Shown: positions 10,967 through 34,324 of the stretch, piece after piece | Numbering within the stretch: the first letter of the stretch is position 1 | Layout: the number at the start of each line of letters is the position of its first letter | DNA from: an uncultured Gammaproteobacteria bacterium | GTDB lineage: Bacteria > Patescibacteriota > Microgenomatia > UBA12405 > JAHJSD01 | Assembly (NCBI GenBank): GCA_964505765.1 | Contig: CAZDJQ010000003.1 | Location: 1-46,565, forward strand | DNA: 46,565 nucleotides | Direction: 5' to 3' | Program-made: the position numbers and the translations under genes | Notes under the pieces: generated by a model | Databases searched by the model: none | Seen by the model: the letters and a program-made list of their open reading frames with translations, nothing else | Told to the model about the DNA's origin: nothing

Positions 10967-11063
10967 AATCTTATCTCCTTTCTAGTTTACAAAATATTAA
11001 AAATAATCCCTGACATGATACCCAGTCACCTGATTTTCATTGAACATACAGGCAAGCTTCTTA

Positions 11064-11963: not shown

Positions 11964-11972
11964 TAATAGATA

Positions 11973-14405: not shown

Positions 14406-14434
14406 TTGACAACACTTTTTATAAACTATATAAT
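14406..14434 (+). promoter_or_regulatory. sigma70-type consensus promoter for the TerB-like gene
   Basis: TTGACA (14406-14411), a 17-nt spacer, then TATAAT (14429-14434). It sits about 77 nt upstream of the ATG at 14511, which has AAGGAG upstream. Confidence 0.5.
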
Positions 14435-14510
14435 GATACAAAAAGGGAAGTATTAATCTAATTTAACCAATTTAGCTTAATTTTCTCAAATTATTTTAAG
14501 GAGATATTTT

Positions 14511-14933: not shown

Positions 14934-15080
14934 GATTCATTCTGCTCGTTGCGTTTTAACCTCCCAAAGATTTCTTCATGGAATCATTCTATCTACTAAA
15001 AAAAAGATTCAATTCATTTGATCCAGTGTTCAGCTTTCACCAAAAGATTGAATGTTTTGATTTTGCAGTTTTATCAGCAC

Positions 15081-16247
15081 TTATTTCAAAGAGATTGAAT
15101 TTTCGGCGATTTTTTCCATTTTTTTATCAGAAGGTTCATTAACAGCTATGATGTAAATTTTGTCGTTCTGTTTTAAAATATAGTCTTCAGGATAGTCCTT
15201 CTTCTGTGGATTGATTATCCAATTTTCTTTCATTTTCATCTCAGGCTTTCCATCTTTATCCAATATTGCATTCCCGAATTCGTCCATTTTGGGGACTTCT
15301 ATTTTGGTTTCCACGGCTATAAGAGTCATGTCTTCATCATGGAGGATTTTGGCAGCTTTCCTAAAACCCATGTTCACAAATCCCTTTGGCACGGACTTTT
15401 TATAGAATTCGCTACCAGAAGTGAACTCCAATAGTTCGTTAAGTATCCAAGAAAGGCCATGATTCAGTGCAGAGGCGACCATCAAATTTCCGCTCATGCG
15501 GTCTAAGCAAATATACTCATCGACTTGAGCATGTTCCAGATGCTTTTTGTATTCAGAGTTCAAGAGCTGGACACATGTATAGACATCCCGGCGCAAAGCT
15601 TCGACGGCGAGTGTCATCAGAACAGCCTGGGCATCAGGATTGATTCCAGCCTGAAACCCAGGTCCGATCTGTGATAAAATAATAGCTGTATTTGCTTTCA
15701 TTATACCAGCTCTTTTTAAGTCTTCCTCTTTAGTGGGGTCCCCGGAAATAAAATCCACTATGTCCTCATCGACAGGTTTTTTATCCAAATCTGCCAGTAT
15801 AACGATGGGGCGTCTTTGTTCGATATCTGAAGTTAGAAGCTGTTTGATTATATTTTTACCTTGAATATTCCAACCACAAATAATGATGTGATTTTTATAG
15901 CTTACCTTCTTCATTATTCTTCCCTCCCTTAGAGATAAATTGACAAACCAAGAGACTATTTTGGCTCCAATAATAGTAATAAAGACAACTCCAGCAATTA
16001 AACCAACTGCACCAGTAAACTTGGCCAGACCGCTTTGCCATTCTAAACTCCCGAGTTCTCCTAGGAACAATGGTAAAACATCCGTAAGGCCTTCGAAGAT
16101 AGTGACATTCATTTCAATAGCTAAGATTAAGGCACATAACAACATCAAACCGACGGAAACGATCAGAGAAATCCAGACTGGATACCTGTATATTTTATTA
16201 ACCAGGATCCTTAACGCTTTTCTTAAATCTATACGCCGAGAACTCAA
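15081..16247 (-). CDS. CASTOR/POLLUX-like membrane protein with RCK (TrkA-N type) domain
   Basis: N-terminal TM helices are followed by HIIICGWNIQGKNIIKQL...PIVILADLD...ISGDPTKEEDLKRAGI, an RCK Rossmann domain with ICGW as in CASTOR/POLLUX. No TVGYG-type K+ filter was seen. Confidence 0.65.
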   Translation of the reverse strand: MSSRRIDLRKALRILVNKIYRYPVWISLIVSVGLMLLCALILAIEMNVTIFEGLTDVLPLFLGELGSLEWQSGLAKFTGAVGLIAGVVFITIIGAKIVSWFVNLSLREGRIMKKVSYKNHIIICGWNIQGKNIIKQLLTSDIEQRRPIVILADLDKKPVDEDIVDFISGDPTKEEDLKRAGIMKANTAIILSQIGPGFQAGINPDAQAVLMTLAVEALRRDVYTCVQLLNSEYKKHLEHAQVDEYICLDRMSGNLMVASALNHGLSWILNELLEFTSGSEFYKKSVPKGFVNMGFRKAAKILHDEDMTLIAVETKIEVPKMDEFGNAILDKDGKPEMKMKENWIINPQKKDYPEDYILKQNDKIYIIAVNEPSDKKMEKIAENSISLK

Positions 16248-16265
16248 GGTGATCCTCCGTTAAAT

Positions 16266-17360
16266 TTAAAATATGAAGTTTCTAACCTGAAATAAGATAA
16301 AAATCCCAAGGATGAAAACCACAATGATGGTTATGGTGTCCCAGCTCATATAGAAATAGACTTTTTTTGGTCTGTGAATCAACCCGATGATAACCAAACT
16401 GGTAAGGATTATGCCTAAAACAGCCGTGAGAACATGAACTGGAGAAACGCTTAGAAAAATATTGCCTCCTCTGAAGAAAAAATCGCTGATGGGAATGATG
16501 AACATATTAAGTATATTGCTGCCGAGAATGTTGCAGACAGCCATGTCAAAAGCCCCAATTTTGACAGCCCCAGCTGTGACTGCGACTTCCGGCAACGAGG
16601 TTACGAAAGCGAGGAAAAGACTGCCCACAAATGTGGCCCCCAAATCGACTCGTAAGTTAAACAGATAAAAAGGACTTGAAAGTGAGTCACCGATTTCTAC
16701 CAACCAAATCCCCGCTAAGACAACGATAACCGCAAATATAAAAAAAATACTAATGATCTTGAAATTCGACATTTTCGAGACATCATTCGTTTCCGTTTTT
16801 GCCGTCTTCTGCCTGCCAGAACGTTCTGTTTCTGTAATTTTAGAAGTTTTTCTTCCTAATTTTGTGATCAGAAATACGGCTGCCAGGTATATACTAAATA
16901 TGAGAAAACTGCAAAAGTAACCCAACCCTTCTCCAAACAATCCGATTACCTTAACTAAAATAATGGCTGCAATCACTATGCTCATTAATAGAATACCAAA
17001 TCCAGCGGTTAGAATATTTTCTATTCTCACATGGGCCAAGATGTGTTCCCTCTTTTGGAGTATATCTAAGATAGCAATGATAACCAAATTAAAAACATTG
17101 CTGCCTAAGACATTGCCTAGGGCAAGGTCCGGCTGAAGGGCTATAGTAACCGCCCCGATGTTGGTCGCTAGCTCAGGTAAAGAGGTGAGCATGGCCAATA
17201 TCACGATGCCGATCCATATTTGTCCCAAACCGGTCCTTTTTCCTATCTCATCTCCGTAGAGCGATATTTTGAAACCAGCAAAAAAGATGACGGAAGCACA
17301 CAAGAGAAACTCTAGAATCAGCCATATACCGCCTTCGCCAAATAACATCCTTAAGAACAT
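16266..17360 (-). CDS. CaCA-family cation/Ca2+ exchanger (YrbG-like)
   Basis: Two alpha-repeats: TSLPELATNIGAV...GNVLGSNVFNL and TSLPEVAVTAGAV...CNILGSNILNMF. About 10 TM helices surround a charged central loop. Confidence 0.85.
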   Translation of the reverse strand: MFLRMLFGEGGIWLILEFLLCASVIFFAGFKISLYGDEIGKRTGLGQIWIGIVILAMLTSLPELATNIGAVTIALQPDLALGNVLGSNVFNLVIIAILDILQKREHILAHVRIENILTAGFGILLMSIVIAAIILVKVIGLFGEGLGYFCSFLIFSIYLAAVFLITKLGRKTSKITETERSGRQKTAKTETNDVSKMSNFKIISIFFIFAVIVVLAGIWLVEIGDSLSSPFYLFNLRVDLGATFVGSLFLAFVTSLPEVAVTAGAVKIGAFDMAVCNILGSNILNMFIIPISDFFFRGGNIFLSVSPVHVLTAVLGIILTSLVIIGLIHRPKKVYFYMSWDTITIIVVFILGIFILFQVRNFIF

Positions 17361-22097: not shown

Positions 22098-23471
22098 CTA
22101 ATACCGATAAAGATTAATTTTTCTTATGGATTGAGATTTGTCATTGCTTAATTTTATATCTTTCTCCACAAGCCGGTATCCATCTTTGTAAATATAGGCC
22201 TTTACATTTTGGTCTCTCGGAACATTAACAATAAAGAATCCGTCTTTATCGCTCTGGGCTACTTTAAAGAAAAATTCTCCATTTATGTAAGATTCAACAT
22301 CTTCTGAGATAATTTTTTGAGACAAATCTATTTCCAGCACCAGAGATATTTTTTCTTCCGAAACATTAAATCTATCGGAAATTTCTTTAATCGATAATCC
22401 CAGGTTGTTGAGTTCCTGAATAATATAGACAGCTTGAATTGCCTTTAATTTCTCATCAAGGTCTTTAATCTGTTTCAAAGTTCTATCCCGGCGGGCAACA
22501 ATAATTACTGCCGAAACCGGTTTATTGGAATGGCTTGATACAACTTTCCCGGTTAGGTAGGTATCGGTCAGTGTTTCGTCCATGTTGTAGTCACTTTGAA
22601 GCCACTTCAGTGGGATTTCGGGAGTCGAGAATCGATATTTCTGTTGAGCCACAGTAAAGACCTTTAAAGCCCAAGTTACAGGATAGATATACCCCATATC
22701 TGAACCGGCTATGGTAGGAGCTGATACTGCGGCAGGGATTCCGATATAAGCTTTCTCATTTAAAGCCGCCCCTCCGCTGCTCCCAGGCGACATAGCTGCA
22801 TTGGATTTGATAATACCGTTTAGTTCTTCATAGAGCTGGTCGTGGTAGTATCCCAGAAATTTCCCTTCCGTCATAGTCAAAGTAGCTCCTCCTACTCCCG
22901 GGTAACCTATAATAGTGATATCTTCATTGAGCTTCATTCCAAAAGGATTGCCGATATCAACATAAGAAAACTCTTTACTCACTGGATTTCCATCTTTGTC
23001 CTGGTCGATCAAAAAAAGGGCTGTATCCCTTTCCTCATCAAGAGCAATGGGAGTGGCTGAAAACTGCCATTCAGGCACTTTGAGAGGATCATTGTCTTTT
23101 AATCTGTAAACCATAATGGAAGGGCTGACCGGCTTGAATACAAAAAGAAGGTTATTTTCTTTGTCGTAGCGGATGTTATCTTCCATTCGGTAAATATGGT
23201 AATTGGTCAGGATTAGGCCATTTTTACTGATAATTGTTCCTGAACCCGTAGGCATCTTTTCCAATCCTTCCTTTATCAATTGGCCGTGCTTAATCACTTC
23301 GTCCAAATTCTTATTCATAATTGGATTTTTGTAGACAGATATTTTCATCAGATGCCCCAACCGAACAAAGGGCGTAAAATCAGAAGGAATATTATCATCG
23401 GGGCCCGAATAAGAAGGGAGGCTCAAGAAAATTAAAATAAGGACAGTTATTTTTATCTTTTTGCCGGTCAT
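22098..23471 (-). CDS. secreted trypsin-like (S1/PA clan) serine protease with a C-terminal beta-rich domain
   Basis: Signal peptide MTGKKIKITVLILIFLSLPSYS. Catalytic contexts are LTNYHIY (His), RDTALFLI (Asp) and SPGSSGGA (Ser). I chose the start at 23471, which has GAGGA 7 nt upstream. The ORF track start at 23522 would overlap the upstream gene by 41 nt. Confidence 0.78.
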   Translation of the reverse strand: MTGKKIKITVLILIFLSLPSYSGPDDNIPSDFTPFVRLGHLMKISVYKNPIMNKNLDEVIKHGQLIKEGLEKMPTGSGTIISKNGLILTNYHIYRMEDNIRYDKENNLLFVFKPVSPSIMVYRLKDNDPLKVPEWQFSATPIALDEERDTALFLIDQDKDGNPVSKEFSYVDIGNPFGMKLNEDITIIGYPGVGGATLTMTEGKFLGYYHDQLYEELNGIIKSNAAMSPGSSGGAALNEKAYIGIPAAVSAPTIAGSDMGYIYPVTWALKVFTVAQQKYRFSTPEIPLKWLQSDYNMDETLTDTYLTGKVVSSHSNKPVSAVIIVARRDRTLKQIKDLDEKLKAIQAVYIIQELNNLGLSIKEISDRFNVSEEKISLVLEIDLSQKIISEDVESYINGEFFFKVAQSDKDGFFIVNVPRDQNVKAYIYKDGYRLVEKDIKLSNDKSQSIRKINLYRY

Positions 23472-23481
23472 TTTCTTATCC

Positions 23482-24891
23482 TCATTCATTTTCCCATTTA
23501 AGGCTTTCCATAATTTTTTCATACATAGTCAGCCCCTCATCAAAGTCCCCAACTGAAGCGCGGTAGGTAAAAACAAATACATGGTTTTTGAAGGAAATGA
23601 TGTCCGCGTAAACTTTTTGCATTTGAGGAAATTCATGTCGGAGCGAATTCTTATTGGTTAAGTAGCTATAGGCAATTCTTTTCCCCTCCCTGCCTCCTGC
23701 TTTAATGTCCCTTACCATCAGGCTTTCGGTTTCAGTGGATTTTATATATTTTGTAAAATCCTGGATTTCATCTTGCGGCTCAATCGGATTGATCTCTACT
23801 GCAAAAGAAAATCCGGGTGAGGAATTCTCACCGGAAAAAAGTATTTTCGAATCTTCATCTAATAAAGCCGGAAAAGGAGTTATCAAAGAAGTTATCTCGG
23901 TTAAAGGAAATTGAGAAAAGGAGTGTGGATAGAAGAAAGAAATGCCATATTGGTCATTTTCATATTTTTCACCTTGCAGGCCTTTGGAGGAAAAAAGACA
24001 AGCTGAAATTAATAAAACAGTTGCAATCAGGACGGCCAGAAAATCAAATTTCGGAACAACCTGGATTTCTTCAAGAACATTTTTTTGGGTCAACTTTTTC
24101 ATTTTAAAATAGCAAAAAAGCAAAATGGTCAGGGCATAGAAAAGAGTGAGAAAAAAAGATAACCAGAAGGCATGTTCAAACCCTGAAAGAAAGATAAATT
24201 CATTAAGCAGGTAGTAAATTCCTAAAAGAATAATTCCGATCAATATCCCGAAAGAAGAAGAAACATCTGTTCCATGTTTTCTGAATTTTGCTTTTCCGAT
24301 AATATAACCCATCAATGAGCCCACACCGGAATAAATAAGAACATTGGTAGTAGCGGTGTAGGCAATAACAAACAGGGTGAAAGAGGGATGCGGCCATATA
24401 TCATAAATGCTTTTTACAAAAGCAAAGCCAGCCCCTACTATTGCTCCATAAACCATGCCGTCCACAATTTCGTCAAACTTTTCGAGCGGCAGGAAGCCGT
24501 AGCGAATAACAAGATAGAGCATTATACTGACCAGAGGAGCCATGACCAGAAATGAACCCAGCATAAAAAGAGAAGATGAAGCATACATCCATTCCTGAAT
24601 ACGAAAAATGATATGATATAAAGGAAAAGCGCCAAAACCGGCTGCTGCCATGCCGGCAATAAAAGATACCGCCAAATATGACAAAGGTTCAGGCTCTAAC
24701 CTGTCTTGAAGATAGAAAAATATAACCCAGATGATGCTCGGAATAAGTATTACGGCCACAAGCTGGATGAAACGCAGGCTTTCCCCGCTGCTCAGAGCAA
24801 TATTATAGCCCGCTAAATACACGGCCAACAAAAAAACAAATTGAAAAAATAAGTTGGTCTCCCCTGTCCTGAGGAAGCTTTTAAGCCTCAT
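23482..24891 (-). CDS. PrsW-family-like polytopic membrane protein with a C-terminal soluble domain; catalytic motifs not evident
   Basis: FYLQDRLEPEP and KFDEIVDGMVYGAIVGAGFAF match PrsW landmarks (YLKDQYDNEP, FDEHYDGIVYGASVSLGFA). I could not find the EExxK motif, and the expected His positions read N or L. Confidence 0.45.
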   Translation of the reverse strand: MRLKSFLRTGETNLFFQFVFLLAVYLAGYNIALSSGESLRFIQLVAVILIPSIIWVIFFYLQDRLEPEPLSYLAVSFIAGMAAAGFGAFPLYHIIFRIQEWMYASSSLFMLGSFLVMAPLVSIMLYLVIRYGFLPLEKFDEIVDGMVYGAIVGAGFAFVKSIYDIWPHPSFTLFVIAYTATTNVLIYSGVGSLMGYIIGKAKFRKHGTDVSSSFGILIGIILLGIYYLLNEFIFLSGFEHAFWLSFFLTLFYALTILLFCYFKMKKLTQKNVLEEIQVVPKFDFLAVLIATVLLISACLFSSKGLQGEKYENDQYGISFFYPHSFSQFPLTEITSLITPFPALLDEDSKILFSGENSSPGFSFAVEINPIEPQDEIQDFTKYIKSTETESLMVRDIKAGGREGKRIAYSYLTNKNSLRHEFPQMQKVYADIISFKNHVFVFTYRASVGDFDEGLTMYEKIMESLKWENE

Positions 24892-24953: not shown

Positions 24954-25547
24954 TTATTTCTTGCGCTTTTCAATGATTGTGTCGATTAATCCGTATTTTA
25001 CTGCATCCTCTGGGGTTAGGTAAAAATCCCTGTCCGTATCCCGGGCAATAATCTCCATCGATTGGCCTGTGTGTTGAACCAATATTTCATTTATCCTCTT
25101 TTTTATCCTGTTCATCTCCTTGACCTGAATTTCCATGTCAGATGCCTGACCCTTTGCTCCTCCCAGAGGCTGGTGGATCAGCATCCTGGCGTTGGGAAAA
25201 GCCATCCTTTTCCCTTTTGTCCCTCCGGCCAGAAGAACAGCTCCCATTGAGGCTGCTTGACCTAAACAAATTGTAGCCACATCACAGGAAACATATTGCA
25301 TGGTGTCATAAATAGCCAGTCCTGCTGTAACTTCTCCCCCCGGGCTGTTTATATAGAAAAAGATGTCTTTATCAGGATCTTCAGATTCTAAATAAAAAAA
25401 CTGAGAAACAACAATATCGGCAACATCGTCGTTTATTATCCCCGTTAATAAGACAATTCGAGCCGACAGCAAGCGCGAATACAAATCAACTTGCCTGGCT
25501 CCCTGCGGTGTTTGCTCCACTACATAAGGAACTTTTATAAAAGCCAT
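24954..25547 (-). CDS. clpP: ATP-dependent Clp protease proteolytic subunit ClpP (paralog 2)
   Basis: 197 aa with [15 protein letters not shown] and [21 protein letters not shown]. By eye, most positions are identical to paralog 1. Confidence 0.93.
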
Positions 25548-25583
25548 GTTTAAGTCTCCTCCTAGATTAGATCACTCGCCTGC

Positions 25584-26015
25584 TCACTGTTCCCCATACT
25601 TCTTGCCTCCGAATTGCGCTTTAATTTCATCATCGTATTTGTCTGCTATGTAAGCAACTGACTTAACAGCAACTTCAAGTTCTTTCCGGTTAAGAAAATC
25701 TCCTAGCAGAATATGCTCAAACAGGATTGCCTGCCGGTCCGGGTCAAGCGAAAATTTACCAAATACTACTTTTATATTCTCATAAGCCAAAAACTTTGTC
25801 AGCTCCCCAGTTATTTGAGCCCCGCGATTAACTACTGACACAACTCTAACAATAGTTTGCTCCTTAATCCAATCTACTGGAATTATAAATACCCGGGCAC
25901 TTCCGGCCTGAAGAATGTAATTGTTACGGTCGTCCTTAAGATACGAGCCGAAAGATTCTTTGAGATATTTTTCTATTGTAGACCTTAATGTTTTTACGGC
26001 ATCAGACGCTGCCAT
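25584..26015 (-). CDS. YbjN-like domain protein, paralog 2
   Basis: 143 aa, colinear with 6889..7320 (FGKFSL...FEHILLGDFLNRKELEVAVKSVAYIADKYDDEIKAQFGG). It lies 36 nt upstream of clpP paralog 2. Confidence 0.65.
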   Translation of the reverse strand: MAASDAVKTLRSTIEKYLKESFGSYLKDDRNNYILQAGSARVFIIPVDWIKEQTIVRVVSVVNRGAQITGELTKFLAYENIKVVFGKFSLDPDRQAILFEHILLGDFLNRKELEVAVKSVAYIADKYDDEIKAQFGGKKYGEQ

Positions 26016-26191: not shown

Positions 26192-28795
26192 TTATTCTTC
26201 CCTCCTTATTTCCAGGCCTTCTTTGGCCAGGAATTCTGGTATCTTACGCACGGTGGCTCGATCCCACTCTTTGACGTCGTCAGGAAGCTCTGACCAGCTC
26301 ACAAGATAAGGACTCTTCTTCTTGGCAGTATCTTTTTTCTCTCCCCATCTCCACCCTTCAAGCAGTCTTTCGACATTCCACCGCCCATGCTCCATTTCTG
26401 CCAGAAACTCAACCTCGTCTTCGGTGAACGATAGTAACCTGATTTTTCGATCGGTTACTTTTTGCGCTGTACACCCAATATGACGAAGCTTCTCGAAAAT
26501 GTGGTCAGCCTGTTGAGCATTAGATTCCTTCAAATTAACCGGCAATTTCTCCCAGTCCGCCATCGCCGGATCGTCGGTCTTTAGACCATCCTTTTTGGTG
26601 CGTCGATACTCCTCATGAATTTCCTTAGCCAGTGTCTTCCTAATATCTTCCGCCAGTTTGGAAGCTCCCAAACCGATGAAAGCCCTAACCGTCATAGCAT
26701 CAGCAGGAAGAAGTGCCAGATTTTTCGAATCGACCCACTTTTCATCTTGAAGTAACTTGGCTGCCTCTCGTCCGCTTTCTTCTGCAACCCCCACTGTGGC
26801 TCCCAGAGCTAAGGCAATTCTGTATTCAATGGCTGAAATCATGCCCCCGTTAATACCGAAAACTTTAACCTGAGATGGATCAATGCCGGCAGAAATTATA
26901 TCAATCCAATTTTGCAAGGGCTCCATTGGACTAAAGCCGCTTCCCTCAGTTTTACGAAGTTCGCTGTACCTCCGGTCAACAGTGGCATCAGGGGGGATAA
27001 GTTTAGGAATATAACCAATCGTCCGGATTTTCTCCCGATATTTTTCTCCTGTTTCACCGACCAATCCGCTTATCCCTTGCTTTGTCCCTCCACTTATTAC
27101 CGTACCCTCATATTCTTTAAAACCTTCCTGCATTAAATGTCTGTAGGCTTTCATCTGTTCTTCAATAGATGGGTCACAGCCACCGGCCACAATAACAACA
27201 GGTCCTTGAATAGATTCGTACTGACTTAAGGTCAGCTCTCTTGCCTTCTCTATTGCTTCTTTAGCCTCTTTTGCTTTTTCTTTCTGTTTTTTAATTTTCT
27301 TTGTCTTCTCTTTTTCTTCTTTGCTTTCTTTGACTTCCTCAAGAGTTTCCTTGGCTTTTTTCTCAGCCCTTGATGCTTTACCAATTAAAAGCAATCGCCG
27401 GACCCATTCATACCCTGAGAGCTCATTGGCAACATTTTTGAGTCTTTCCAATGAGGCAAGTGCCGTCTCAATCATAAAGAGTGCCGAACTGATTTGGATG
27501 GCTTTTGCGTAGGCTTCAAGGCTTTTATAAGGCTTGTTTAATAAAAGATAAAACTTGCCCATCATATAAAAGGCCCATGGCAGATTAACGCCAACATCAG
27601 CCTGGTCATTACATCTCTGGATAGCTGAGGTAATCACAGGACTCAAGAGTGAGACTATGGATGTATTCCTGGCTTGAGAAATTTCTAAATCCAAATAGTT
27701 CTCCAATGGATACGGGTCTGACGGATCTAGTTCAAAAGCATGACGGTATAGCTTTCGCACCTTTTCTTCGTCGATTCCCTTCCAGGTGCCGGCCAGGGAA
27801 GCCAGGGCATCCACGTCTTCATTGGGGGGCTCGCATGCCTTCTCCAGATAGCGCTGGCCTTTCTTAAAGCGGCGGCCATTGGGTCTGTGTTTGTTCATTT
27901 TACAAAGAGCAACACCCAGGTCTCTCAGGATAGCCGGCTCCTCTGAATCACGGTACTTGGAAAGCACCTCATCGGCCTTCGGCCAGTCTCCAAGGGTAAT
28001 GGCTAACTTTCCGATGCGGCCGGCGATTTCCACGTTATCAGAATCGTGTTCCAGGATTATCTCCAGCAATTTTATTTCATCCTGCATTTGTTCTTCAGTC
28101 ATGTAAGCCCCGTAGCTTGCGGCGTAGGCGGATAACCCCTCTTTTATTTTAGAAAAGTTTTTATCTGCGCTTTCCAGCATTGCCGCTACCCCGGCAAATT
28201 CGCGCTCCCACTTTGAGGGTATTTGAAAAGAACTTTTATAAGCCAACACATGGGCCATATCCGCCCAAGCGTGCTCAAGAATGGTTCTCACCTGGACTTC
28301 AGCCCATGGATTAGGAAATTTCTTTTCATCCAACAGCACCGGCGGCACCTCTACCTTGACATCTTTATTGGGAAAAACCCCAGGCCTAAATTTGATAATA
28401 TAGTGCACAGAACGGTAACCAAACTCAGTGGGTTTTAGCCGTTGACTAACATCTATTGTGTTATCTTCATCAATCCGGAAATTATTCCTGATAAACTCAG
28501 ATATGGCTCTAACTTCATCAGCGGTATGAACAATGACTCGCCCACCACACAAGTCAGTCAACTGATTTACCGGATCTTTATACTTAGCCTTTTTCCGCTG
28601 ACATTTTTCGGCAAAACTGGCAATGGCCTTGGGCCTTGTTTGCACAATAGCCAAAGGGGCAAGCTTTTTTGCTACTTTTTTGAGAACCTGTTCCAAGACT
28701 TCAGCGTAGAGCTTATAATTATTGTAACGCCTTTTATATTCTTCAACCTGCTGGCGGGTCCATTCTTTGCATTTAATATCTGTTTTCTTAGTCAT
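26192..28795 (-). CDS. RelA/SpoT-type nucleotide pyrophosphokinase - TPR - SLOG-like - RyR-domain fusion protein
   Basis: - N-terminus: TRPKAIASFAEKCQRK...LTDLCGGRVIVHT...EFGYRSVHYIIKF...AEVQVRTILEHAWADMAH, the RelA_SpoT synthetase fold.
- Middle: TPR-like helices and a K/E coiled coil.
- Then: VVIVAGGCDPS...GTVISGGTKQGISGLVGE...GINGGMISAIEYRIALALG, a LOG/SLOG-type Rossmann domain.
- C-terminus: MEHGRWNVERLLEGWRWGEKKD..KKKSPYLVSWSELPDDVKEWDR, a RyR repeat. Confidence 0.8.
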   Translation of the reverse strand: MTKKTDIKCKEWTRQQVEEYKRRYNNYKLYAEVLEQVLKKVAKKLAPLAIVQTRPKAIASFAEKCQRKKAKYKDPVNQLTDLCGGRVIVHTADEVRAISEFIRNNFRIDEDNTIDVSQRLKPTEFGYRSVHYIIKFRPGVFPNKDVKVEVPPVLLDEKKFPNPWAEVQVRTILEHAWADMAHVLAYKSSFQIPSKWEREFAGVAAMLESADKNFSKIKEGLSAYAASYGAYMTEEQMQDEIKLLEIILEHDSDNVEIAGRIGKLAITLGDWPKADEVLSKYRDSEEPAILRDLGVALCKMNKHRPNGRRFKKGQRYLEKACEPPNEDVDALASLAGTWKGIDEEKVRKLYRHAFELDPSDPYPLENYLDLEISQARNTSIVSLLSPVITSAIQRCNDQADVGVNLPWAFYMMGKFYLLLNKPYKSLEAYAKAIQISSALFMIETALASLERLKNVANELSGYEWVRRLLLIGKASRAEKKAKETLEEVKESKEEKEKTKKIKKQKEKAKEAKEAIEKARELTLSQYESIQGPVVIVAGGCDPSIEEQMKAYRHLMQEGFKEYEGTVISGGTKQGISGLVGETGEKYREKIRTIGYIPKLIPPDATVDRRYSELRKTEGSGFSPMEPLQNWIDIISAGIDPSQVKVFGINGGMISAIEYRIALALGATVGVAEESGREAAKLLQDEKWVDSKNLALLPADAMTVRAFIGLGASKLAEDIRKTLAKEIHEEYRRTKKDGLKTDDPAMADWEKLPVNLKESNAQQADHIFEKLRHIGCTAQKVTDRKIRLLSFTEDEVEFLAEMEHGRWNVERLLEGWRWGEKKDTAKKKSPYLVSWSELPDDVKEWDRATVRKIPEFLAKEGLEIRREE

Positions 28796-28823: not shown

Positions 28824-31409
28824 CTATTTAAAAATCGATAACTTCCCTTTGCATGAAGGACATTCATCTAAACCTTCAGCGGTTTGAAAATAGATTGACT
28901 TTCCACAGTGGGGGCAGGTAAATACTTTGGCTGTCAAGCTTGCCCAGAATAATATTATGGCAAAAAGGATCAGCGGCCCACCCAACAGCCATAGCCATGG
29001 GGAGAGCCGGGTCAGTGCATAGCCGCCCCCAGCCAGCAGTACAGCCATCGCTGTAGTAAGCAGTTTTGTCCAGCTGACGCTTTTTCTCTCAGCTCGTGAA
29101 GGAGCTCTACGTACCTTTGGTTTCACCTCCGGTATTGGTGGACGGGGCTTTGGTGGGGAATCCGTGACCTGCTCAGCCTTTTCCCCAGTAGCGGTTTCTT
29201 TTTTGTTCGGCAGGATGGGTTCATTGTTCCTAACATTTGAAGTGACAACCTGATTTGTCTCCTGTTTAAACGGCTCTCTGTAATATCCGAAAATTTCAAG
29301 TATATATACGTTCCCTAAGTTGTCGCCCGCGGCAATCATATTTCCATTGTGATTAAAATGGCAACCTCGGATATATCCGAGAGCTGGATATATGTCTAAT
29401 AGTACTCCCGTCTCAGTATCCCAAAGTCGTATAGTGCTATCGGCACTTGTTGAGGCAATTATTTTACCATCAGGACTAAAAGCACAGGAGAGCACCACAT
29501 TTGTGTGTCCGTTAAGAATGGCCTTTTCTTCAACTCTTTGTGCGTCAAACAACCGAACCGTTTTGTCATGGGACAATATAACCATTTGTCCATCAGGGCT
29601 AAATGCACAGCAGTAGACATCACCTACGACATTTCTGCCGGTTTTAAATTTACCTGTCTGAGCATCCCATAGTCTTAATGCCCCACCATCAATCGCAGTG
29701 GCGAGGATTTTCCCATCCGGACTAAAAGCACAACATTTACTAACTCTGTTTTGTCCTTTAATAACAACCTTTTCCTCACCCGACCTAGAATTCCATAACC
29801 TAATTGTAAAATCTCTACTTGTGGATGCAATTAGCTTTCCATCGTGACTGAAGGCACATGATACAACCGAATCTTCATGTCCTTTGAAGACTGCTTTTTC
29901 ATCACCTGTTTGAGAATCCCAGAGCCTTATTGTTTCATCTTCGCTTGCTGATGCAAGTAATTTTCCGTCAGGATGAAAAACACAGGAATTAATGTCTCCC
30001 GTATGGCTTAAAAAGACAGCCTTTTCTTCTCCAGTTTGGGAATCCCAGATCCTGATGCTCTTATCATCACCTGCCGAGGCAAGTATTTTTCCGTCGGGTC
30101 TGAAGGAGCAGGAATTGATCCAATAGAAAGGGCCTTCGAGAGTAGCTTTATCTTCACTTCTTTGAGTATCCCATAGCCGCGCTGTAAAATCTTTACTTGC
30201 TGTGGCAATTATTTTACCATCAGTACTGAAAGCACAAGCGTTGACAGAGTGTATGTGACCTTTTAGGACGGTCTTTTCTTCACCGGTTTGGGAATCCCAT
30301 AACCTTACTCTCCAATCTTCACTTGCGGAAGCAACCATTTTGCCATCCGGACTAAAGGCACAGTATGTCACCCTGTTGGAATGGCCTCTGAGGGTTAAAA
30401 CCTTCTCATCAGTCTTGACATCCCAAAGTAATACATTTCTTGGATTAGAACCCATACAGACTACTTTGTTACCGTAAGGGGAATAACAGCCTGTTGCCTC
30501 ATAGGAAGAACCATATTTTAATTTGAATCCAGCCTTTCTTCTTTCTGTTTCAACATTCCAGAGCATCACAGCGTAGAGACCTACAGATACGATTGTCTTT
30601 CCATCGGAACTAAAGGCACAGAATATAACTGCCGAAGTGTCGCATTTGAGGATAATTAGTTCTTTACCATTTTCAGCATTCCATAACCTTACAGTCTTAT
30701 CACCTGCAGAAGCTAGCATTTTCCCATCGTGGCGAAATGCACATAATAAGACGGGGTCGGTGTGACCTTCAAGGACGGCCTTTGCTTCACCGGTTTGAGA
30801 ATCCCATAGCCGCGCTGTGCAATCTTTACTTGCTGTGGCAATTATTTTACCATCAGGGCTGAATGTACAATAATTAATAGTCTCAGTATGGCCTATGAGA
30901 ATAGTTCTTAATTGGCCCGTTTTAGCATTCCAAAGCCTTATGGTACAATCTTTACTTGCTGTGGCAATTATTTTACCATCAGGGCTGAAGGAACAAAAGT
31001 TTACATTTTGGGTGTGGCCTCTGAGAACCGCTTTTTCTCGGCCGGTTTTCACATCCCAGAGCCTTATTGTCTTATCAGCACTTGCTGTAGCAACAATATT
31101 TCCGTCGGGACAAAAATCACAATAGTTTACAATGTGGGTATGGCCCTTGAGGATCAATAAAAATGCCTCGGACTCACTAGTCCTGCATTTGTTGTGAAAC
31201 CAGGACTTGGAACCGGGAGAGATCATCCTCTCGAATTCTGGGGCTATCAAATTTGAAACCGGCCCTTCTTTCCCTTCTCCATCCACCCACTGCAGCCGGT
31301 TATACATCTGCTGCCAGAGAATATCAGGCCGCTCCCGCAGGTTGTGAAGCTCCTGGCCTAAAACTCTGGCAAAAGCCTCCAGGACTGTTTTTTGTTCAGA
31401 ATGTTTCAT
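28824..31409 (-). CDS. WD40-repeat protein with adaptor helix, two C-terminal TM helices and a CPxC..CPxC zinc ribbon (W3)
   Basis: 861 aa. The N-terminus carries ELHNLRERPDILWQQMYNRLQW, followed by about 14 WD40 repeats. The tail has two hydrophobic helices (LLTTAMAVLLAGGGYAL, LLGGPLILFAIILFWASL) and then FTCPHCGKSIYFQTAEGLDECPSCKG. Confidence 0.9.
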   Translation of the reverse strand: MKHSEQKTVLEAFARVLGQELHNLRERPDILWQQMYNRLQWVDGEGKEGPVSNLIAPEFERMISPGSKSWFHNKCRTSESEAFLLILKGHTHIVNYCDFCPDGNIVATASADKTIRLWDVKTGREKAVLRGHTQNVNFCSFSPDGKIIATASKDCTIRLWNAKTGQLRTILIGHTETINYCTFSPDGKIIATASKDCTARLWDSQTGEAKAVLEGHTDPVLLCAFRHDGKMLASAGDKTVRLWNAENGKELIILKCDTSAVIFCAFSSDGKTIVSVGLYAVMLWNVETERRKAGFKLKYGSSYEATGCYSPYGNKVVCMGSNPRNVLLWDVKTDEKVLTLRGHSNRVTYCAFSPDGKMVASASEDWRVRLWDSQTGEEKTVLKGHIHSVNACAFSTDGKIIATASKDFTARLWDTQRSEDKATLEGPFYWINSCSFRPDGKILASAGDDKSIRIWDSQTGEEKAVFLSHTGDINSCVFHPDGKLLASASEDETIRLWDSQTGDEKAVFKGHEDSVVSCAFSHDGKLIASTSRDFTIRLWNSRSGEEKVVIKGQNRVSKCCAFSPDGKILATAIDGGALRLWDAQTGKFKTGRNVVGDVYCCAFSPDGQMVILSHDKTVRLFDAQRVEEKAILNGHTNVVLSCAFSPDGKIIASTSADSTIRLWDTETGVLLDIYPALGYIRGCHFNHNGNMIAAGDNLGNVYILEIFGYYREPFKQETNQVVTSNVRNNEPILPNKKETATGEKAEQVTDSPPKPRPPIPEVKPKVRRAPSRAERKSVSWTKLLTTAMAVLLAGGGYALTRLSPWLWLLGGPLILFAIILFWASLTAKVFTCPHCGKSIYFQTAEGLDECPSCKGKLSIFK

Positions 31410-32515: not shown

Positions 32516-34324
32516 TTAAATCCTCCGGTAAATTTGAACGCCGGCCTGGGCGAGAAAAGAAGGAAGACCCCGAATCATATTCCGATCATACTCTTTAATC
32601 TCCTCGGAAAGCTTTTCCCATGGAACAAGATGCGGACTGGTCTTCTTTTTAATATCTTTATTCCCTGGAGCATAAGACCAGCCTTGTCGGCGTCTCTCGT
32701 CACACCAGCGTTCATGCTCCATTTCAGACAATTTCTCCATTTCTTCCAGTGAAAATTCAAAATCGAATGCTTTCCAATCGGTCAAGGGCTGGATGCCGCA
32801 GCCGATAGCTTTCAGTTTCACTTCAATATGAGCAGCCTGATGCCGGTTTGATTCTTTTAAATCCTCCGGCAAGTTATTCCAATCGACCATTGAAGGGTTC
32901 GTCTCAGGGGTTTCGCCGGCTTTCTTCTGATGGCGGACATAGTCCTCGTGGATAGCCTGAGCCAGGATTTCATGTGTCCCCCCTAAAAGTGCCTCCAGGC
33001 TGCAGGTTTTATCGAGCAAGCCAAAGGCATGAAGCTGGTTTAAATCAAGAGCTTCGCGGTCTTCTTTGATTAATTTGGCCAACCCGGCTTCCTGGCTCAT
33101 ACGCATCACAATCGGCACCTTGTGTTTTTTGGTTCTCCGGTAAAGGGTTAAGGCGTTTACCAGGACATGGACATCATCATCAAAGCAAATATAGACCGCA
33201 TCTACATCAAGATTGCCTTTGGAATCATAGAGAAAATCGCCTCTTTCAAACTCCAACGCATTTTTTTCCATTTGCCGGATATCAAACTCACAGGCCTTAT
33301 CAAGCTGGGGATATTGCAAACACAGAATTTCCACTTTTTTTTCAGCATCTCTGTCAATCACTGCAATCCGCAGCCGCCCGCCGTTTTTTTCCCGCTTCAT
33401 CCACCAGTTTCTGGCCGCCTGGACAACCAGGCTTCTTCCCATCTTACCCAAACCGACAATCAGCATCCTTGGATACCTGCCGCCTGCTTCAATTTCTCCC
33501 TTAAAGGGTGGATGCTCCCTTAGCATGAGACGAGCTCCTTGTTCGAGAACATTGAAAAGCTCCAATCTAAAAGCATCCGCTTCAGCAGCCAGCTCCCATC
33601 CCCTTAGCAAATCGCACAATTCAAGGTCGACAATATGAACAAATGCAGTAAGAGCTTTTTCTTTCCGATAGCGAACTATATCGCGGGCCTTAAGAGCTAT
33701 TTCTGCATTGGTCCCGTCATCAGCACAAACTGTGATGAGGTATTTTGCCCTGTGAACCCTTGCCTTGCGAAGCAGATTTTCGTCTGTTGCATCTCCGATT
33801 AAGACAACTGCTCCCTGTTTCCGGCATTGGTCAATCAAAGGATTTTCCTCATCTTCCTCAACTAACACTACTTGATACCCATGTTCTAAGAACTGCTGAG
33901 ACAAACGCAGTCCTCTTTCTCCAAGTCCACAGATCACAATATGATTCTTAAGAAAACGAACCTTCAGCAACTGCCACTGCTGGCTGAAGACAGCTAAAAG
34001 AGCCTGAATTGCAGCATAAGCAGCCACAGCCGGCATCAAAAATCGGGCTGCCTCAAGCTGCCAGGGAATAGTTCCTCCCACATCGCCGGATTCTAATATC
34101 ATGAGCTGCACAGTTCGGTATGTAATGTCGAATATTGTACTACCTTCCCCTATTGCCAAAGAATATCTGTAAAAACCAATATATCCCAGAACAAAGCCAA
34201 TTATCCAGATTGCCCCAACCAAAGGCCATTCAATGTCATGCCAAATCGGATGAAGCCGTTTTCTTTTAAAGGCCCGGAGGCGATTACGCCAGTTTTTTTT
34301 ACTTCTTCGTCCTTCTTTTGCCAT
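32516..34324 (-). CDS. channel-like membrane protein: 2 TM with pore-like loop - tandem RCK/TrkA-N Rossmann domains - RyR domain
   Basis: The two TM helices flank YRTVQLMILESGDVGG (in pore-loop position, but not a K+ filter). The Rossmann motifs are HIVICGLGERGLRLSQQF and MLIVGLGKMGRSLV. The C-terminus reads MEHERWCDERRRQGWSYAPGNKDIKKKTSPHLVPWEKLSEEIKEYDR (RyR repeat). Confidence 0.72.
   Translation of the reverse strand: MAKEGRRSKKNWRNRLRAFKRKRLHPIWHDIEWPLVGAIWIIGFVLGYIGFYRYSLAIGEGSTIFDITYRTVQLMILESGDVGGTIPWQLEAARFLMPAVAAYAAIQALLAVFSQQWQLLKVRFLKNHIVICGLGERGLRLSQQFLEHGYQVVLVEEDEENPLIDQCRKQGAVVLIGDATDENLLRKARVHRAKYLITVCADDGTNAEIALKARDIVRYRKEKALTAFVHIVDLELCDLLRGWELAAEADAFRLELFNVLEQGARLMLREHPPFKGEIEAGGRYPRMLIVGLGKMGRSLVVQAARNWWMKREKNGGRLRIAVIDRDAEKKVEILCLQYPQLDKACEFDIRQMEKNALEFERGDFLYDSKGNLDVDAVYICFDDDVHVLVNALTLYRRTKKHKVPIVMRMSQEAGLAKLIKEDREALDLNQLHAFGLLDKTCSLEALLGGTHEILAQAIHEDYVRHQKKAGETPETNPSMVDWNNLPEDLKESNRHQAAHIEVKLKAIGCGIQPLTDWKAFDFEFSLEEMEKLSEMEHERWCDERRRQGWSYAPGNKDIKKKTSPHLVPWEKLSEEIKEYDRNMIRGLPSFLAQAGVQIYRRI

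Follow-up and report, generated by a model that had tools for sequence, protein, structure and literature searches.

A RelA/SpoT synthetase fused to TPR, SLOG, and tandem RyR domains and accompanied by a NUDIX hydrolase

The window (the whole stretch of 46,565 nucleotides that was analyzed) encodes on its minus strand an 867-amino-acid (aa) protein composed of five parts: a RelA/SpoT synthetase at the N terminus, followed by a TPR solenoid, a variable helical linker rich in K and E, a SLOG domain of the TRPM/LSDAT type, and a tandem RyR Repeat12-type module. The gene and its parts, with the evidence for each, are the following.

26192..28795, minus strand: whole open reading frame, 867 aa, ATG start, with RelA_SpoT, TPR, linker, SLOG, and tandem RyR (open reading frame list, Pfam, homologues, AF2)
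28106..28795, minus strand: residues 1-230, N-terminal helix and RelA/SpoT synthetase (SYNTH) domain, active-site residues intact (Pfam PF04607, phmmer, Foldseek, family conservation)
27386..28105, minus strand: residues 231-470, all-helical TPR solenoid (weak Pfam TPR, AF2 helix-turn-helix repeats, Foldseek, CTPR 7obi)
27221..27385, minus strand: residues 471-525, long K/E-rich helical linker (family alignment, AF2 helices 462-519)
26660..27220, minus strand: residues 526-712, TRPM/LSDAT-type SLOG domain (PF18171 below cut-off, Foldseek, conserved loops)
26447..26659, minus strand: residues 713-783, degenerate first RyR repeat with H727, Y730, and N759 (internal repeat, neighbor identity, alignment, Foldseek)
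26195..26446, minus strand: residues 784-867, canonical RyR repeat (PF02026, PDB 6uhi and 3nrt, alignment, invariant columns)

The reading frame and all of the motifs quoted in the preliminary description are present in the translation of 26192..28795: GGRVIV (residues 84-89), EFGYRSVHYII (124-134), EVQVRTILEHAWADMAH (166-182), GGCD (538-541), SGGTKQGISG (568-577), and NGGMISAIE (649-657). Each of the four folds named there (RelA/SpoT, TPR, SLOG, and RyR) is backed by profile and structure searches (Pfam, PDB matches, and Foldseek), but the single RyR domain of that four-module build is in fact a tandem. The AF2 model of the full-length protein has a pLDDT of 88.2 and a pTM of 0.76. The C-terminal ~340 aa, comprising the SLOG domain and the tandem RyR module, form a rigid unit, and the TPR solenoid and variable helical linker connect the synthetase half to this SLOG/RyR half. 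Judged from its sequence, the product belongs with the small alarmone synthetases as a multidomain, regulated relative. The fusion had been thought undescribed, and this agrees with the literature searched, in which no description of a RelA/SpoT-TPR-SLOG-RyR fusion was found; the likeliest texts (Burroughs et al. 2015 NAR and Burroughs & Aravind 2020 J Bacteriol) lay outside its scope.

By its residues and fold, the N-terminal ~230 aa is a RelQ/RelP-like RelA/SpoT pyrophosphokinase. RelA_SpoT (PF04607) matches residues 53 to 189 with E = 6.8e-20 and 71.9 bits, as opposed to a gathering cut-off of 27. RelQ (5ded) aligns over all motifs with a phmmer E value of 1e-10, profile matches to RelQ/RelP range from 1e-15 to 1e-17, and Foldseek places the fold with 5dec, 5ded, 6ewz, and 6fgk at TM(target) values of 0.75 to 0.79. 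The synthetase residues, which the preliminary description had singled out for comparison with RelQ, Tas1, and CapRel, are all present in alignments to RelQ and FaRel2, and the domain has the pattern R-x-K...S...K, D, G-x-R, G-Y-x-S-x-H, E-x-Q-x-R-T. The donor-ATP, Mg2+, and acceptor residues in place are R54, K56, S60, K64, R67, D81, G84, R86, Y127, R128, H131, E166, and Q168 (in FaRel2, the counterparts are R64, K66, S70, K74, R77, D90, G93, R95, Y128, E145, and Q147). Most of them, including R86, are invariant in 60 family members; S60, R67, and R128 fall outside the invariant list. The residues named above other than R128 are invariant or at least 90% conserved, and synthetase residues show at least 95% conservation in a diverse alignment of 63 sequences reaching down to ~30% identity.

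Similarity to CapRel (7ztb/9erv) is limited to residues 118 to 187 (phmmer E = 0.013), and nucleotide and tRNA acceptors are not separable from sequence. The AF2 model begins with a long ordered helix (residues 2-45). HD, TGS, and ACT domains have no Pfam match at E <= 1 in the 867-aa protein, and the C-terminal pseudo-Zn-finger that serves CapRel as antitoxin and sensor is absent, the C-terminal domains being TPR, SLOG, and RyR. The nearest stand-alone SYNTH relatives are single-gene cargo on plasmids and phage-plasmids and match the defense candidate PDC-S33.

Behind the synthetase, TPR families give weak Pfam matches at residues 241 to 436, and Foldseek aligns the solenoid with the TPRs of SPY and OGT. 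The linker is the only poorly conserved, indel-rich part of the protein, with a mean conservation of 0.18 and a gap fraction of 0.49. In the SLOG domain, LSDAT_prok (PF18171) matches residues 532 to 692 with E = 8.8e-5 and 22.3 bits, just under the gathering cut-off of 25.4. The SLOG assignment, questioned by this subthreshold score, nevertheless stands because many close homologues of the window protein have a precomputed PF18171 match and because the AF2 model of residues 520 to 867 (pLDDT 89.5) has as its best PDB match the MHR1/2 region of TRPM2 (8sre, a chanzyme with ADPR; Foldseek E = 6e-8), followed by TRPM8, TRPM4, and TRPM5. Its conserved residues are G538, G539, the S-G-G-T-x-x-G loop at 568 to 574 (G569-G570-T571 and G574), N649-G650-G651, and E657, and the LOG-like signature GGxxG...NGG...E657 is kept. 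In another fusion of this SLOG clade, a PycC-like nucleotide cyclase plus AAA_16 takes the place of RelA_SpoT.

The canonical RyR repeat matches PF02026 at residues 784 to 864 (E = 1.4e-12; 48.1 bits, as opposed to a cut-off of 27.4), and the tandem module, two-fold pseudosymmetric in its fold, aligns with the whole RyR3 Repeat12 (R12) domain over about 186 to 191 columns in Foldseek. RyR3 R12 binds ATP and ADP by stacking on Trp880 and by salt bridges from Lys884 and Arg895, and the phage RyR proteins known as RyDEP use H75, W78, and D117 to bind TIR-made 2'/3'cADPR and to cleave or sequester it. In alignments, H803, W806, and D845, invariant in the family, correspond to those three RyDEP residues, W806 also to Trp880, and the conserved R810 and K821 to K884 and R895 of RyR3. 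The phosphate-binding H100 of RyDEP is replaced by Ser828, and R1018, which makes the third contact to phosphate in RyR3, has no conserved counterpart as read off the alignment. Because the catalytic dyad of RyDEP is kept, the canonical repeat may cleave its own ligand, which would give the protein a built-in timer. The SLOG domain of Thoeris ThsA senses TIR-made 3'cADPR (PMC11204291), and recent work makes RyR and SLOG domains likely sensors of ADP-ribose-type ligands.

Around the synthetase gene lie six further features of the window.

24954..26015, minus strand: 143-aa TY-Chap1/YbjN-like chaperone and 197-aa ClpP, immediately downstream of the synthetase gene (Pfam)
28824..31409, minus strand: WD40 protein, 861 aa, with two propellers, a C-terminal TM segment, and a Zn-ribbon, 28 bp upstream of the synthetase gene (open reading frame list, Pfam)
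32516..34324, minus strand: 602-aa protein with two predicted TM helices, TrkA_N/RCK, a second Rossmann-like domain, and a tandem RyR (Pfam TrkA_N and RyR; RCK matches 1id1 and 4j9u)
34334..36664, minus strand: STAND NTPase, 776 aa, with DUF4062 (TIR-like NADase domain), NACHT, and NWD1-like wHTH (Pfam; motifs FVSSTF...CLEEL...LLGDRYG N-terminal)
36683..37138, minus strand: NUDIX hydrolase, 151 aa, MutT/NudG-like, with intact NUDIX box (Pfam, PADLOC PDC-S07, PDB matches, partner counts)
37101..42109, minus strand: two more WD40 proteins belonging to this gene array, 1116 and 436 aa long (Pfam)

The NUDIX gene, located 7.9 kb from the synthetase gene in the window, had been placed at 36683..37099; the gene is real (Pfam NUDIX E = 1.7e-19), but its GTG start extends it to 37138, and 37099 marks an internal ATG. 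Its PDB matches are NudG 2rrk and 3gwy, and its nearest solved relatives are NudG and MutT, both of which degrade (p)ppGpp in E. coli (PMC5845004, PMC7593582). The same NUDIX clade occurs in 45 of 75 related loci and directly abuts the synthetase gene in 41; with neighboring and fused copies counted together, this small MutT/NudG-like NUDIX accompanies the family in 48 of the 75. Among the 52 loci whose flanks extend 3 kb or more on each side, 34 have it. In 9 members the NUDIX is fused to the N terminus of the synthetase; partner NUDIX proteins measure 135 to 150 aa, and the NUDIX box is intact in 32 of 32. The tie between NUDIX and synthetase that was proposed from the window is therefore strong as linkage, and a small MutT/NudG-type NUDIX is a dedicated partner of the family, although it could equally act as an ADPR hydrolase.

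The family comprises ~915 clusters at 50% identity in a library of 1.84 billion proteins and is spread patchily over more than 15 bacterial phyla and archaea. Its members belong to uncultured organisms, come almost entirely from MAGs, and are annotated merely as "RyR domain-containing protein," making this a widespread and so far unstudied enzyme. Identities of 50 to 79% across phyla and domains are typical of horizontal transfer, and one MAG holds two copies (L057 and L060). In 20 of 75 loci (~27%), the window among them, a TIR-like domain of either the DUF4062 or the TIR_2 type is encoded within 10 kb, usually as part of a STAND NTPase; the remaining loci have none within that distance. Of the 20, 19 are DUF4062-like and one (L006) is TIR_2-NACHT, and they often abut the synthetase gene. 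DUF4062 is an NADase making ADPR, and the characterized ones yield linear ADPR and are NAD+-depleting executioners rather than signal generators. Other recurrent neighbors are WD40 proteins (7 loci), SLATT membrane proteins (7 loci), and vWA and kinase-trypsin genes. The 861-aa WD40 protein of the window is likely the sensor arm of the repeat-less STAND protein. In 15 of 75 loci, a partner protein carries the RyR module of the synthetase as well, one such partner being the 602-aa RCK protein, whose RyR region is 46% identical to the synthetase C terminus over 149 aa and which has orthologues in at least 7 loci. At the cyclase-SLOG locus, the neighboring genes encode a TIR_2-nSTAND1-WD40 protein along with cNMP-binding(-RyR) proteins; with RyR beside a cNMP-binding domain, RyR is not simply the receiver of the generator's product.

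Several characterized systems share portions of this design. RelQ and RelP have the same SYNTH fold and all catalytic, donor, and acceptor residues, are the best matches in sequence and structure, and likewise lack an HD hydrolase, but they are homotetramers of a single ~210-aa domain under the control of pppGpp or RNA, as opposed to a protein with ~640 extra residues (TPR, SLOG, and tandem RyR) and a dedicated NUDIX partner. The toxSAS systems (FaRel/SAH antitoxin, FaRel2, CapRel, and Tas1) resemble the family in pairing a RelA/SpoT enzyme with a partner in a conserved two-gene or fused layout and in their conflict-like spread, and FaRel is neutralized enzymatically by a hydrolase, the SAH antitoxin. 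Here, however, the partner is a NUDIX, which is not known as a toxSAS antitoxin, instead of SAH/HD, a pseudo-Zn-finger, or Tis1; the sensor domains are SLOG and RyR, and the CapRel similarity is confined to the SYNTH core. Long RSH enzymes, namely Rel, RelA, and SpoT, place a hydrolase N-terminal to SYNTH and regulatory domains C-terminal to it, an order paralleled by the NUDIX-SYNTH fusions (P0139, P0197, and others), but the hydrolase here is nonhomologous (NUDIX versus HD), and SLOG and RyR are the regulators in place of TGS, ACT, and ribosome-binding domains. By analogy, the NUDIX would be a functional counterpart of the HD hydrolase of long Rel/SpoT or of the FaRel SAH antitoxin.

On the sensory side, type I Thoeris sets a TIR-family NADase (ThsB) beside a SLOG fused to an enzymatic output (ThsA, SLOG-SIR2). 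It differs in that the output here is a RelA/SpoT pyrophosphokinase and not SIR2, the SLOG belongs to the TRPM/LSDAT clade, RyR and NUDIX are added, and the TIR-like counterpart, found in only ~27% of loci, is a DUF4062 or TIR_2 domain carried by a STAND NTPase. RyDEP and RyR Repeat12 have the same PF02026 fold, and the H-x-x-W and dyad Asp of the former and the ATP-contacting Trp, Lys, and Arg of the latter are conserved; RyDEP, however, is a stand-alone phage counterdefense homodimer, whereas the present module is an intramolecular tandem, with one degenerate repeat and Ser for H100, fused to host enzymes. The TRPM2 channel/chanzyme, whose ligand is ADP-ribose, provides the best structural match to the SLOG and joins SLOG (MHR1/2) and NUDIX (NUDT9-H) in one functional unit, but its output is a channel rather than an enzyme and its NUDIX is NUDT9-like rather than MutT/NudG-like; the likeness is one of structure.

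Because a dedicated NUDIX and, often, TIR-like NAD-cleaving immune sensors accompany it, the gene probably ties NAD-derived danger signals to growth-arrest signaling. The mechanism that we rate as most likely, at about even odds, is that alarmone synthesis is turned on when SLOG/RyR sense an ADP-ribose-type ligand, with the NUDIX as eraser. The SLOG domain, the RyR module, or both would bind an adenine-ribose nucleotide, the best candidate being either ADP-ribose or a TIR-like NADase product of the cyclic-ADPR type; in the window, the candidate source is the upstream DUF4062-NACHT protein, with WD40 partners sensing the trigger. Binding, passed on via the TPR scaffold, would free the synthetase, which would use ATP to pyrophosphorylate a purine nucleotide at its 3'-OH; the resulting alarmone, of the (p)ppGpp or (p)ppApp type, would arrest growth or signal onward. 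The NUDIX would hydrolyze this alarmone (or, less likely, the ADPR-type input), keeping the switch safe and reversible. Since TIR-like genes occur near only ~27% of loci, a TIR product is not demonstrable as the general input. Further points against the scheme are the linear ADPR and executioner role of the characterized DUF4062 enzymes, Ser828 in place of RyDEP H100, the nonconserved R1018 contact, the subthreshold LSDAT_prok score of the window protein, and the pairing of RyR with a cNMP-binding domain at the cyclase-SLOG locus.

The same enzyme might instead target translation as a toxSAS, with RelA/SpoT pyrophosphorylating the tRNA 3'-CCA like CapRel and FaRel2 once SLOG/RyR sense a signal and the NUDIX removing the tRNA 3'-pyrophosphate or the ligand. 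The donor site and acceptor tyrosine are common to tRNA-modifying toxSAS, and the long N-terminal helix, the PDC-S33 matches of the plasmid-borne SYNTH relatives, and the conflict-system-like context all point this way. We consider it improbable, however, given that RelQ/RelP are far closer (E = 1e-10; TM 0.75 to 0.79) than CapRel (E = 0.013), that the pseudo-Zn-finger antitoxin domain is missing, that the GYRS motif retains R128 as in RelQ/RelP, and that a conserved or fused MutT/NudG-type NUDIX better suits a small-nucleotide product. The proximity to RelQ/RelP would also fit a housekeeping stress synthetase, in which TPR, SLOG, and RyR adjust the stringent response according to the energy or NAD state of the cell (ATP/ADP/ADPR) and the NUDIX supplies the hydrolase activity of a bifunctional enzyme divided between two proteins, with no role in conflict or immunity. 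Such an enzyme is consistent with the high conservation of the whole protein, which lacks a hypervariable sensor surface, with the NUDIX-SYNTH order paralleling HD-SYNTH, with the description of eukaryotic R12 as an ADP/ATP sensor, and with the lack of a TIR-like gene near most loci. It is nonetheless unlikely in view of the sporadic distribution with 50 to 79% identities across phyla and domains, the doubled copy in one MAG, the repeated presence of TIR-like/STAND, SLATT, vWA, kinase-trypsin, and WD40 genes nearby, and the matches of PADLOC defense-candidate models to both partners.

Alternatively, the locus might process ADP-ribose or other NAD metabolites: the RyR His/Asp dyad would open cADPR-type molecules, the SLOG would be a LOG-like N-glycosidase or a binder, the NUDIX would cleave ADPR, and RelA/SpoT would pyrophosphorylate ADPR or a related ribose nucleotide for a new messenger or NAD+ salvage. 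RyDEP indeed sits in the phage NARP1 operon beside a pyrophosphokinase-type enzyme that pyrophosphorylates ADPR, H803 and D845 are invariant, the SLOG bears the LOG-like signature ending in E657, NUDIX ADPRases are common, and the TRPM2 chanzyme joins SLOG to an ADPR-cleaving NUDIX. Yet no RelA/SpoT enzyme is known with ADPR as acceptor, the small partner NUDIX is nearest to NTP-type MutT/NudG and not to ADPRases, and the acceptor site has the residues of SAS enzymes that act on purine nucleotides, which leaves this reading very unlikely. An extension of the sensing-and-alarmone scheme, which we offer tentatively and hold to be doubtful, is a two-tier nucleotide cascade: TIR-like NADase/STAND sensors would produce an ADP-ribose-type signal for the SLOG and RyR-Repeat12 unit (whose RyR may also destroy it), and RelA/SpoT would then make an alarmone or a new pyrophosphorylated ADPR-type nucleotide as second messenger, with NUDIX as eraser and RyR-tagged partners (RCK membrane protein, AAA ATPase, and SLATT) as further receivers. 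If true, this would be the first immune link of NAD-derived signaling to stringent-response chemistry, and a prokaryotic setting in which modules later found in animal TRPM2 (SLOG and NUDIX) and ryanodine receptors (R12) cooperate.

In this genome, the synthetase gene is surrounded by a ClpB/CesT/TY-Chap1/ClpP backbone, for which the proposed scheme does not account, another point against it. The TY-Chap1 and ClpP genes belong to this backbone, which is duplicated in the window, and are not conserved beside the family elsewhere.

The 867-aa protein encoded at 26192..28795 on the reverse strand (hereafter the target) begins with an ATG in the ORF listing of the window and joins a RelA/SpoT synthetase (SYNTH) domain to tetratricopeptide repeats (TPR), a SLOG domain and a RyR module. 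This architecture is real and well above chance level. Every motif quoted in the preliminary description is present in the translated ORF, and all four folds named there are backed by Pfam, by Foldseek or by both, that of SLOG mainly by Foldseek.

Pfam matches along the target
Residues 53-189: RelA_SpoT, E = 6.8e-20, 71.9 bits (gathering cut-off 27)
Residues 241-436: TPR families, weak matches
Residues 532-692: LSDAT_prok (SLOG), E = 8.8e-5, 22.3 bits, slightly under the gathering cut-off of 25.4
Residues 784-864: RyR, E = 1.4e-12, 48.1 bits (gathering cut-off 27.4)

Because the SLOG profile score fell under its cut-off, this assignment required structural support. The full-length AlphaFold2 model, built from a 60-sequence alignment, is compact and confident (pLDDT 88.2, pTM 0.76), as is a separate model of residues 520-867 (pLDDT 89.5, pTM 0.87). 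In Foldseek searches against the PDB, residues 1-230 match RelQ/RelP (TM(target) 0.75-0.79), the central part resembles TPR solenoids of the SPY/OGT type, and residues 526-712 match the MHR1/2 (LSDAT/SLOG) region of TRPM2, the top match being the ADP-ribose-containing structure 8sre (E = 6e-8), followed by TRPM8, TRPM4 and TRPM5. Residues 713-867 match the whole tandem Repeat12 (R12) domain of RyR3 over ~186-191 aligned columns, and the matched structures include ATP, ADP and AMP-PCP complexes. The RyR part thus matched comprises a degenerate first and a canonical second repeat, a two-repeat module shared with a 602-aa neighbor (46% identity over 149 aa, BLASTP). Across both sets used to measure conservation (63 diverse and 60 closer members), all modules are constrained except the K/E-rich helical linker at residues 471-525.

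All key catalytic residues of the synthetase are present, as judged from a RelQ alignment and the FaRel2 residue list, and most are invariant, so the enzyme is predicted to be active.

Active-site residues of the target
R54, K56, S60, K64, R67: donor-ATP residues
D81: Mg2+ ligand
G84, R86: further donor-site residues
Y127: acceptor-stacking residue, inside the GYRSxH motif
E166, Q168: other active-site residues

By its SYNTH domain, the target belongs to the RelA/SpoT (RSH) superfamily, every testable feature of which it displays. Without an HD, TGS or ACT domain, it falls outside the long RSH enzymes. Nor is it CapRel-type: its synthetase is far nearer RelQ/RelP, matched at E = 1e-10, than CapRel, matched at E = 0.013. 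The PADLOC defense-candidate model PDC-S33 matches the synthetase region (E = 6e-17). The nearest relatives of this domain on mobile elements are stand-alone RelA/SpoT proteins of 357-378 aa, at 436-1572 of the Klebsiella pneumoniae plasmid pZZW20-3.5K (locus L082) and at 3875-4948 of locus L084. One such protein is the sole cargo of a 3.5-kb ColE1-type plasmid, and on a Bacteroides phage-plasmid another is flanked by the terminase and HNH genes; they have the look of single-gene defense or toxin candidates of the PDC-S33 type. The proteins from the K. pneumoniae plasmid, a Bacillus thuringiensis plasmid and the Bacteroides phage-plasmid are, like the target, nearer to RelQ than to CapRel, and their PDC-S33 match is confined to the SYNTH core, so they were rejected as a guide to the target's substrate.

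The two C-terminal modules have relatives that read adenine nucleotides. In crystal structures of eukaryotic R12, ATP or ADP stacks on Trp880 and forms salt bridges with Lys884 and Arg895. According to a 2026 preprint, phage RyR-domain proteins (RyDEP; PF02026) bind 2'cADPR and 3'cADPR (cyclic ADP-ribose isomers), then cleave or sequester them, using an H75/D117 catalytic dyad, W78 stacked on the adenine and H100 on the phosphates. Alignment of one such protein, gp78 of phage DyoEdafos, with the RyR repeats of the target places most of these contacts in the canonical repeat (784-867).

Ligand-contact positions in the canonical repeat
H803 (RyDEP H75): invariant
W806 (RyDEP W78, RyR3 Trp880): invariant
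R810 (RyR3 Lys884): conserved
K821 (RyR3 Arg895): basic residue at the aligned position
S828 (RyDEP H100): not conserved
D845 (RyDEP D117): invariant

In the degenerate repeat, which resembles the noncatalytic animal repeats, the residues are H727, Y730 and N759. For SLOG, the precedents are TRPM2 and ThsA of Thoeris, whose SLOG domain senses cADPR isomers made by TIR. Since the RyR and SLOG precedents agree, we infer from homology that both modules probably take an adenine-ribose ligand of the ADP-ribose (ADPR)/cADPR type.

A search of 5.8 billion proteins returned 701 matches, and the best 120 of these all extend over the full length (825-907 aa) at 53-95% identity and share the architecture of the target. 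With the SLOG domain alone as the query, 915 clusters at 50% identity were recovered, nearly all with the same layout. In the source databases, the matches to the whole protein go by no other name than "RyR domain-containing protein" or "ppGpp synthetase/RelA/SpoT-type nucleotidyltransferase." The 80 genome loci gathered all come from metagenome-assembled genomes and cover Planctomycetota, Verrucomicrobiota, Desulfobacterota, Chloroflexota, Actinomycetota, Acidobacteriota, Nitrospirota, Gemmatimonadota, Bacteroidota, Lentisphaerae/Kiritimatiellia, Fibrobacteres, Cloacimonadales, Hydrogenedentota and Pseudomonadota among bacteria, and Bathyarchaeia and Methanobacterium among archaea. Identities of 50-79% between phyla and between domains of life indicate horizontal spread. 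In plasmid and phage collections, tblastn found no full-length members, only stand-alone RelA/SpoT proteins at 19-24% coverage, which leaves carriage of the full-length family by known mobile elements unsupported. The earlier view that the fusion is undescribed agrees with the searchable literature, in which Kaur 2020/2021 and both RSH classification papers make no mention of it, a scope that excludes the founding SLOG/LSDAT papers (Burroughs 2015 NAR; Burroughs & Aravind 2020).

To describe gene context, ORFs were called in all loci, flanking proteins were clustered and HMMs were built, with counts given per 75 loci. The commonest partner is a small NUDIX protein of the same clade as the window gene at 36683..37138 (reverse strand). 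It occurs in 45 loci, or 34 of the 52 with at least 3 kb on each flank, and in 41 it abuts the gene of the family member, mostly directly upstream on the same strand. Nine members are outright fusions with NUDIX N-terminal to SYNTH (proteins P0131, P0139, P0192, P0197, P0206 and P0245, plus the family members at loci L036, L037 and L058), bringing the NUDIX-linked loci to 48 of 75. The NUDIX box is intact in 32 of 32 partners examined. An eraser role had been proposed for this gene; its linkage to the family held, and it may well act as an eraser. Among solved structures, NudG and MutT-type enzymes are nearest; NudG and MutT hydrolyze (p)ppGpp in Escherichia coli, as do the NUDIX enzymes NahA and Ndx8 in other organisms. 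A gene of the inositol-monophosphatase/CysQ family (cluster 20) adjoins the family at two loci, L067 (8965-9927) and L043. Enzymes of this type strip 3'-phosphates off pAp-type nucleotides, and such a neighbor would suit a later step that disposes of (p)ppNpp already cut by NUDIX.

A TIR-like domain ranks second among the recurrent partners, of the DUF4062 type in 19 of 75 loci and as TIR_2-NACHT in locus L006. These domains are mostly N-terminal on STAND NTPases with WD40 or TPR arms and often abut the family member; the window's version is a DUF4062-NACHT protein (34334..36664) plus three separate WD40 proteins. A 2026 preprint describes DUF4062 as a TIR-like NADase making ADP-ribose, in a phage-defense system and in human TEP1. 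The tandem RyR module recurs on another protein in 15 of 75 loci, as TrkA_N/RCK-RyR, AAA-RyR or a small stand-alone RyR. In the window's TrkA_N-RyR protein (32516-34324, reverse strand), two hydrophobic helices flank a pore-loop-like TYRTVQLMILESGDVGG ahead of two Rossmann/RCK-like domains. The protein may act as a nucleotide-gated 2TM/RCK cation channel; its pore has no Pfam or PDB match. The AAA-RyR protein (~900-1000 aa; L033, 5481-8180; also L027, L038, L043, L064, L065 and L072) is a third type of RyR-tagged partner: behind an uncharacterized N terminus it carries a P-loop AAA domain, and it ends in the shared tandem RyR module. Less frequent recurrent neighbors are Sigma54-type AAA, kinase-trypsin and vWA proteins; membrane proteins of the SLATT/DUF4231 kind are present in 7 loci, the window among them. 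The window's 360-aa SLATT_1 + DUF4231 protein (4943-6025, forward strand, ~20 kb from the target) is of the SMODS/SLOG-associated 2TM effector type; its homologues recur near the family, close ones a few genes away at most in L012, L027, L039 and L067 and remoter ones in L004 and L006.

The SLOG clade of the target (~50% identity) is also found C-terminal on proteins that combine a complete PycC-like cyclase with AAA_16 and have no RyR (L086, an ENA ERZ1758309 scaffold, 6001-15153; also L085 and L087). Next to them are encoded a TIR_2-nSTAND1-WD40 protein and two proteins that bind cNMP, of which one bears RyR. This is a parallel system with a cyclase replacing RelA/SpoT, which implies a shared syntax built from different parts: a SLOG-fused nucleotide generator, a TIR-like STAND protein and RyR-tagged receivers. 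Because RyR is here joined to a cNMP-binding domain beside a cyclase, the idea that RyR receives the synthetase's own product is weakened.

We give about an even chance to a model in which an ADPR-family ligand, supplied by the TIR-like NADase/STAND sensor at loci having one, would be read by the SLOG/RyR unit; the TPR scaffold would pass the change on to the RelA/SpoT domain, which would pyrophosphorylate a purine nucleotide to an alarmone, and the partner NUDIX would clear that product. The NUDIX would then correspond in function to FaRel's SAH antitoxin and to the HD domain that Rel/SpoT enzymes carry N-terminal to SYNTH. The family resembles toxSAS (toxic small alarmone synthetase) modules in its linked, putatively neutralizing partner; Thoeris, at loci with a TIR-like gene, in the pairing of TIR with SLOG; RyDEP and R12 in the RyR pocket; and TRPM2 in joining SLOG with NUDIX. 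As a whole it equals none of them. That the target is itself a tRNA-pyrophosphorylating toxSAS is rather improbable; its synthetase is much nearer to RelQ/RelP than to CapRel.

Several points count against the ADPR-to-alarmone model: TIR-like genes lie within the 10-kb flanks used at only ~27% of loci, characterized DUF4062 enzymes deplete NAD+ instead of signaling, and no histidine stands at the position of RyDEP H100. A housekeeping alarmone synthetase tuned by energy or NAD has the same low probability as the toxSAS reading. An enzyme that processes or pyrophosphorylates ADPR is the least probable reading.

If the ADPR-to-alarmone model holds, this is a very large family (~900 clusters at 50% identity, in >15 phyla plus archaea) that has gone unstudied because its members sit in uncultured lineages. 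It would link alarmone (RelA/SpoT) and NAD-derived TIR/ADPR immune signaling, now separate fields, and NUDIX + SYNTH would be a second type of bifunctional alarmone enzyme, a nonhomologous counterpart of HD + SYNTH in Rel/SpoT. For cellular RyR domains it would mean a concrete and testable function in sensing ADP-ribose-type ligands, one shown to date only for phage counterdefense proteins and the drug-binding R12 of animal RyRs, and the SLOG (TRPM2) and R12 (RyR channel) modules would have bacterial relatives in which to study nucleotide reading.

In the window, the target belongs to an array of genes that share one direction and extend from 46.0 kb to 22.1 kb, and part of this array has a shorter paralogue.

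Array and paralogous backbones (all on the reverse strand)
Array items 1-5: ClpB-like AAA, CesT-like chaperone, WD40 (two genes), NUDIX, DUF4062-NACHT
Array items 6-9: TrkA_N-RyR, 249-aa protein, WD40, target
Array items 10-13: TY-Chap1, ClpP, PrsW-like protein, Trypsin_2
24954-46006: larger backbone, ClpB-like AAA+, CesT-like, WD40, TY-Chap1/YbjN, ClpP
6248-14201: shorter backbone (6.2-14.2 kb), the same five components

The NUDIX, STAND, RyR and RelA genes are embedded in the larger copy. The duplicated backbone may be a conflict system regulated by Clp protease and chaperones. As general partners of the family, Clp, TY-Chap1 and CesT were rejected: beside other loci they are absent, except for a ClpB-like protein in 2, and we therefore regard them as a host-specific scaffold. 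A promoter and terminator scan of 24.8-37.4 kb gave counts at shuffle level, uninformative on transcription units. At 35-4299, where GC is low (31-38%), Pfam matches none of five ORFs (149-337 aa) at E <= 1e-5.

Between the backbones (14511-17360) are TerB-like (14511-14933, forward), RCK/TrkA_N (15081-16247, reverse) and Na+/Ca2+ exchanger family (16266-17360, reverse) genes, a cation/Ca2+-handling cluster within a conflict-type island. The WD40 protein directly upstream of the target (28824-31409, reverse) ends in a Pro/Lys-rich linker, a predicted transmembrane segment and a CxxC...CxxC zinc ribbon; the window's five large WD40 proteins group into one cluster and appear paralogous. After ClpP, in the same orientation (22098-24891, reverse), come a PrsW-like intramembrane protease homologue (469 aa) and a Trypsin_2 peptidase (474 aa), and Kinase-Trypsin_2-TPR proteins recur close to the family in L015, L018 and L021.
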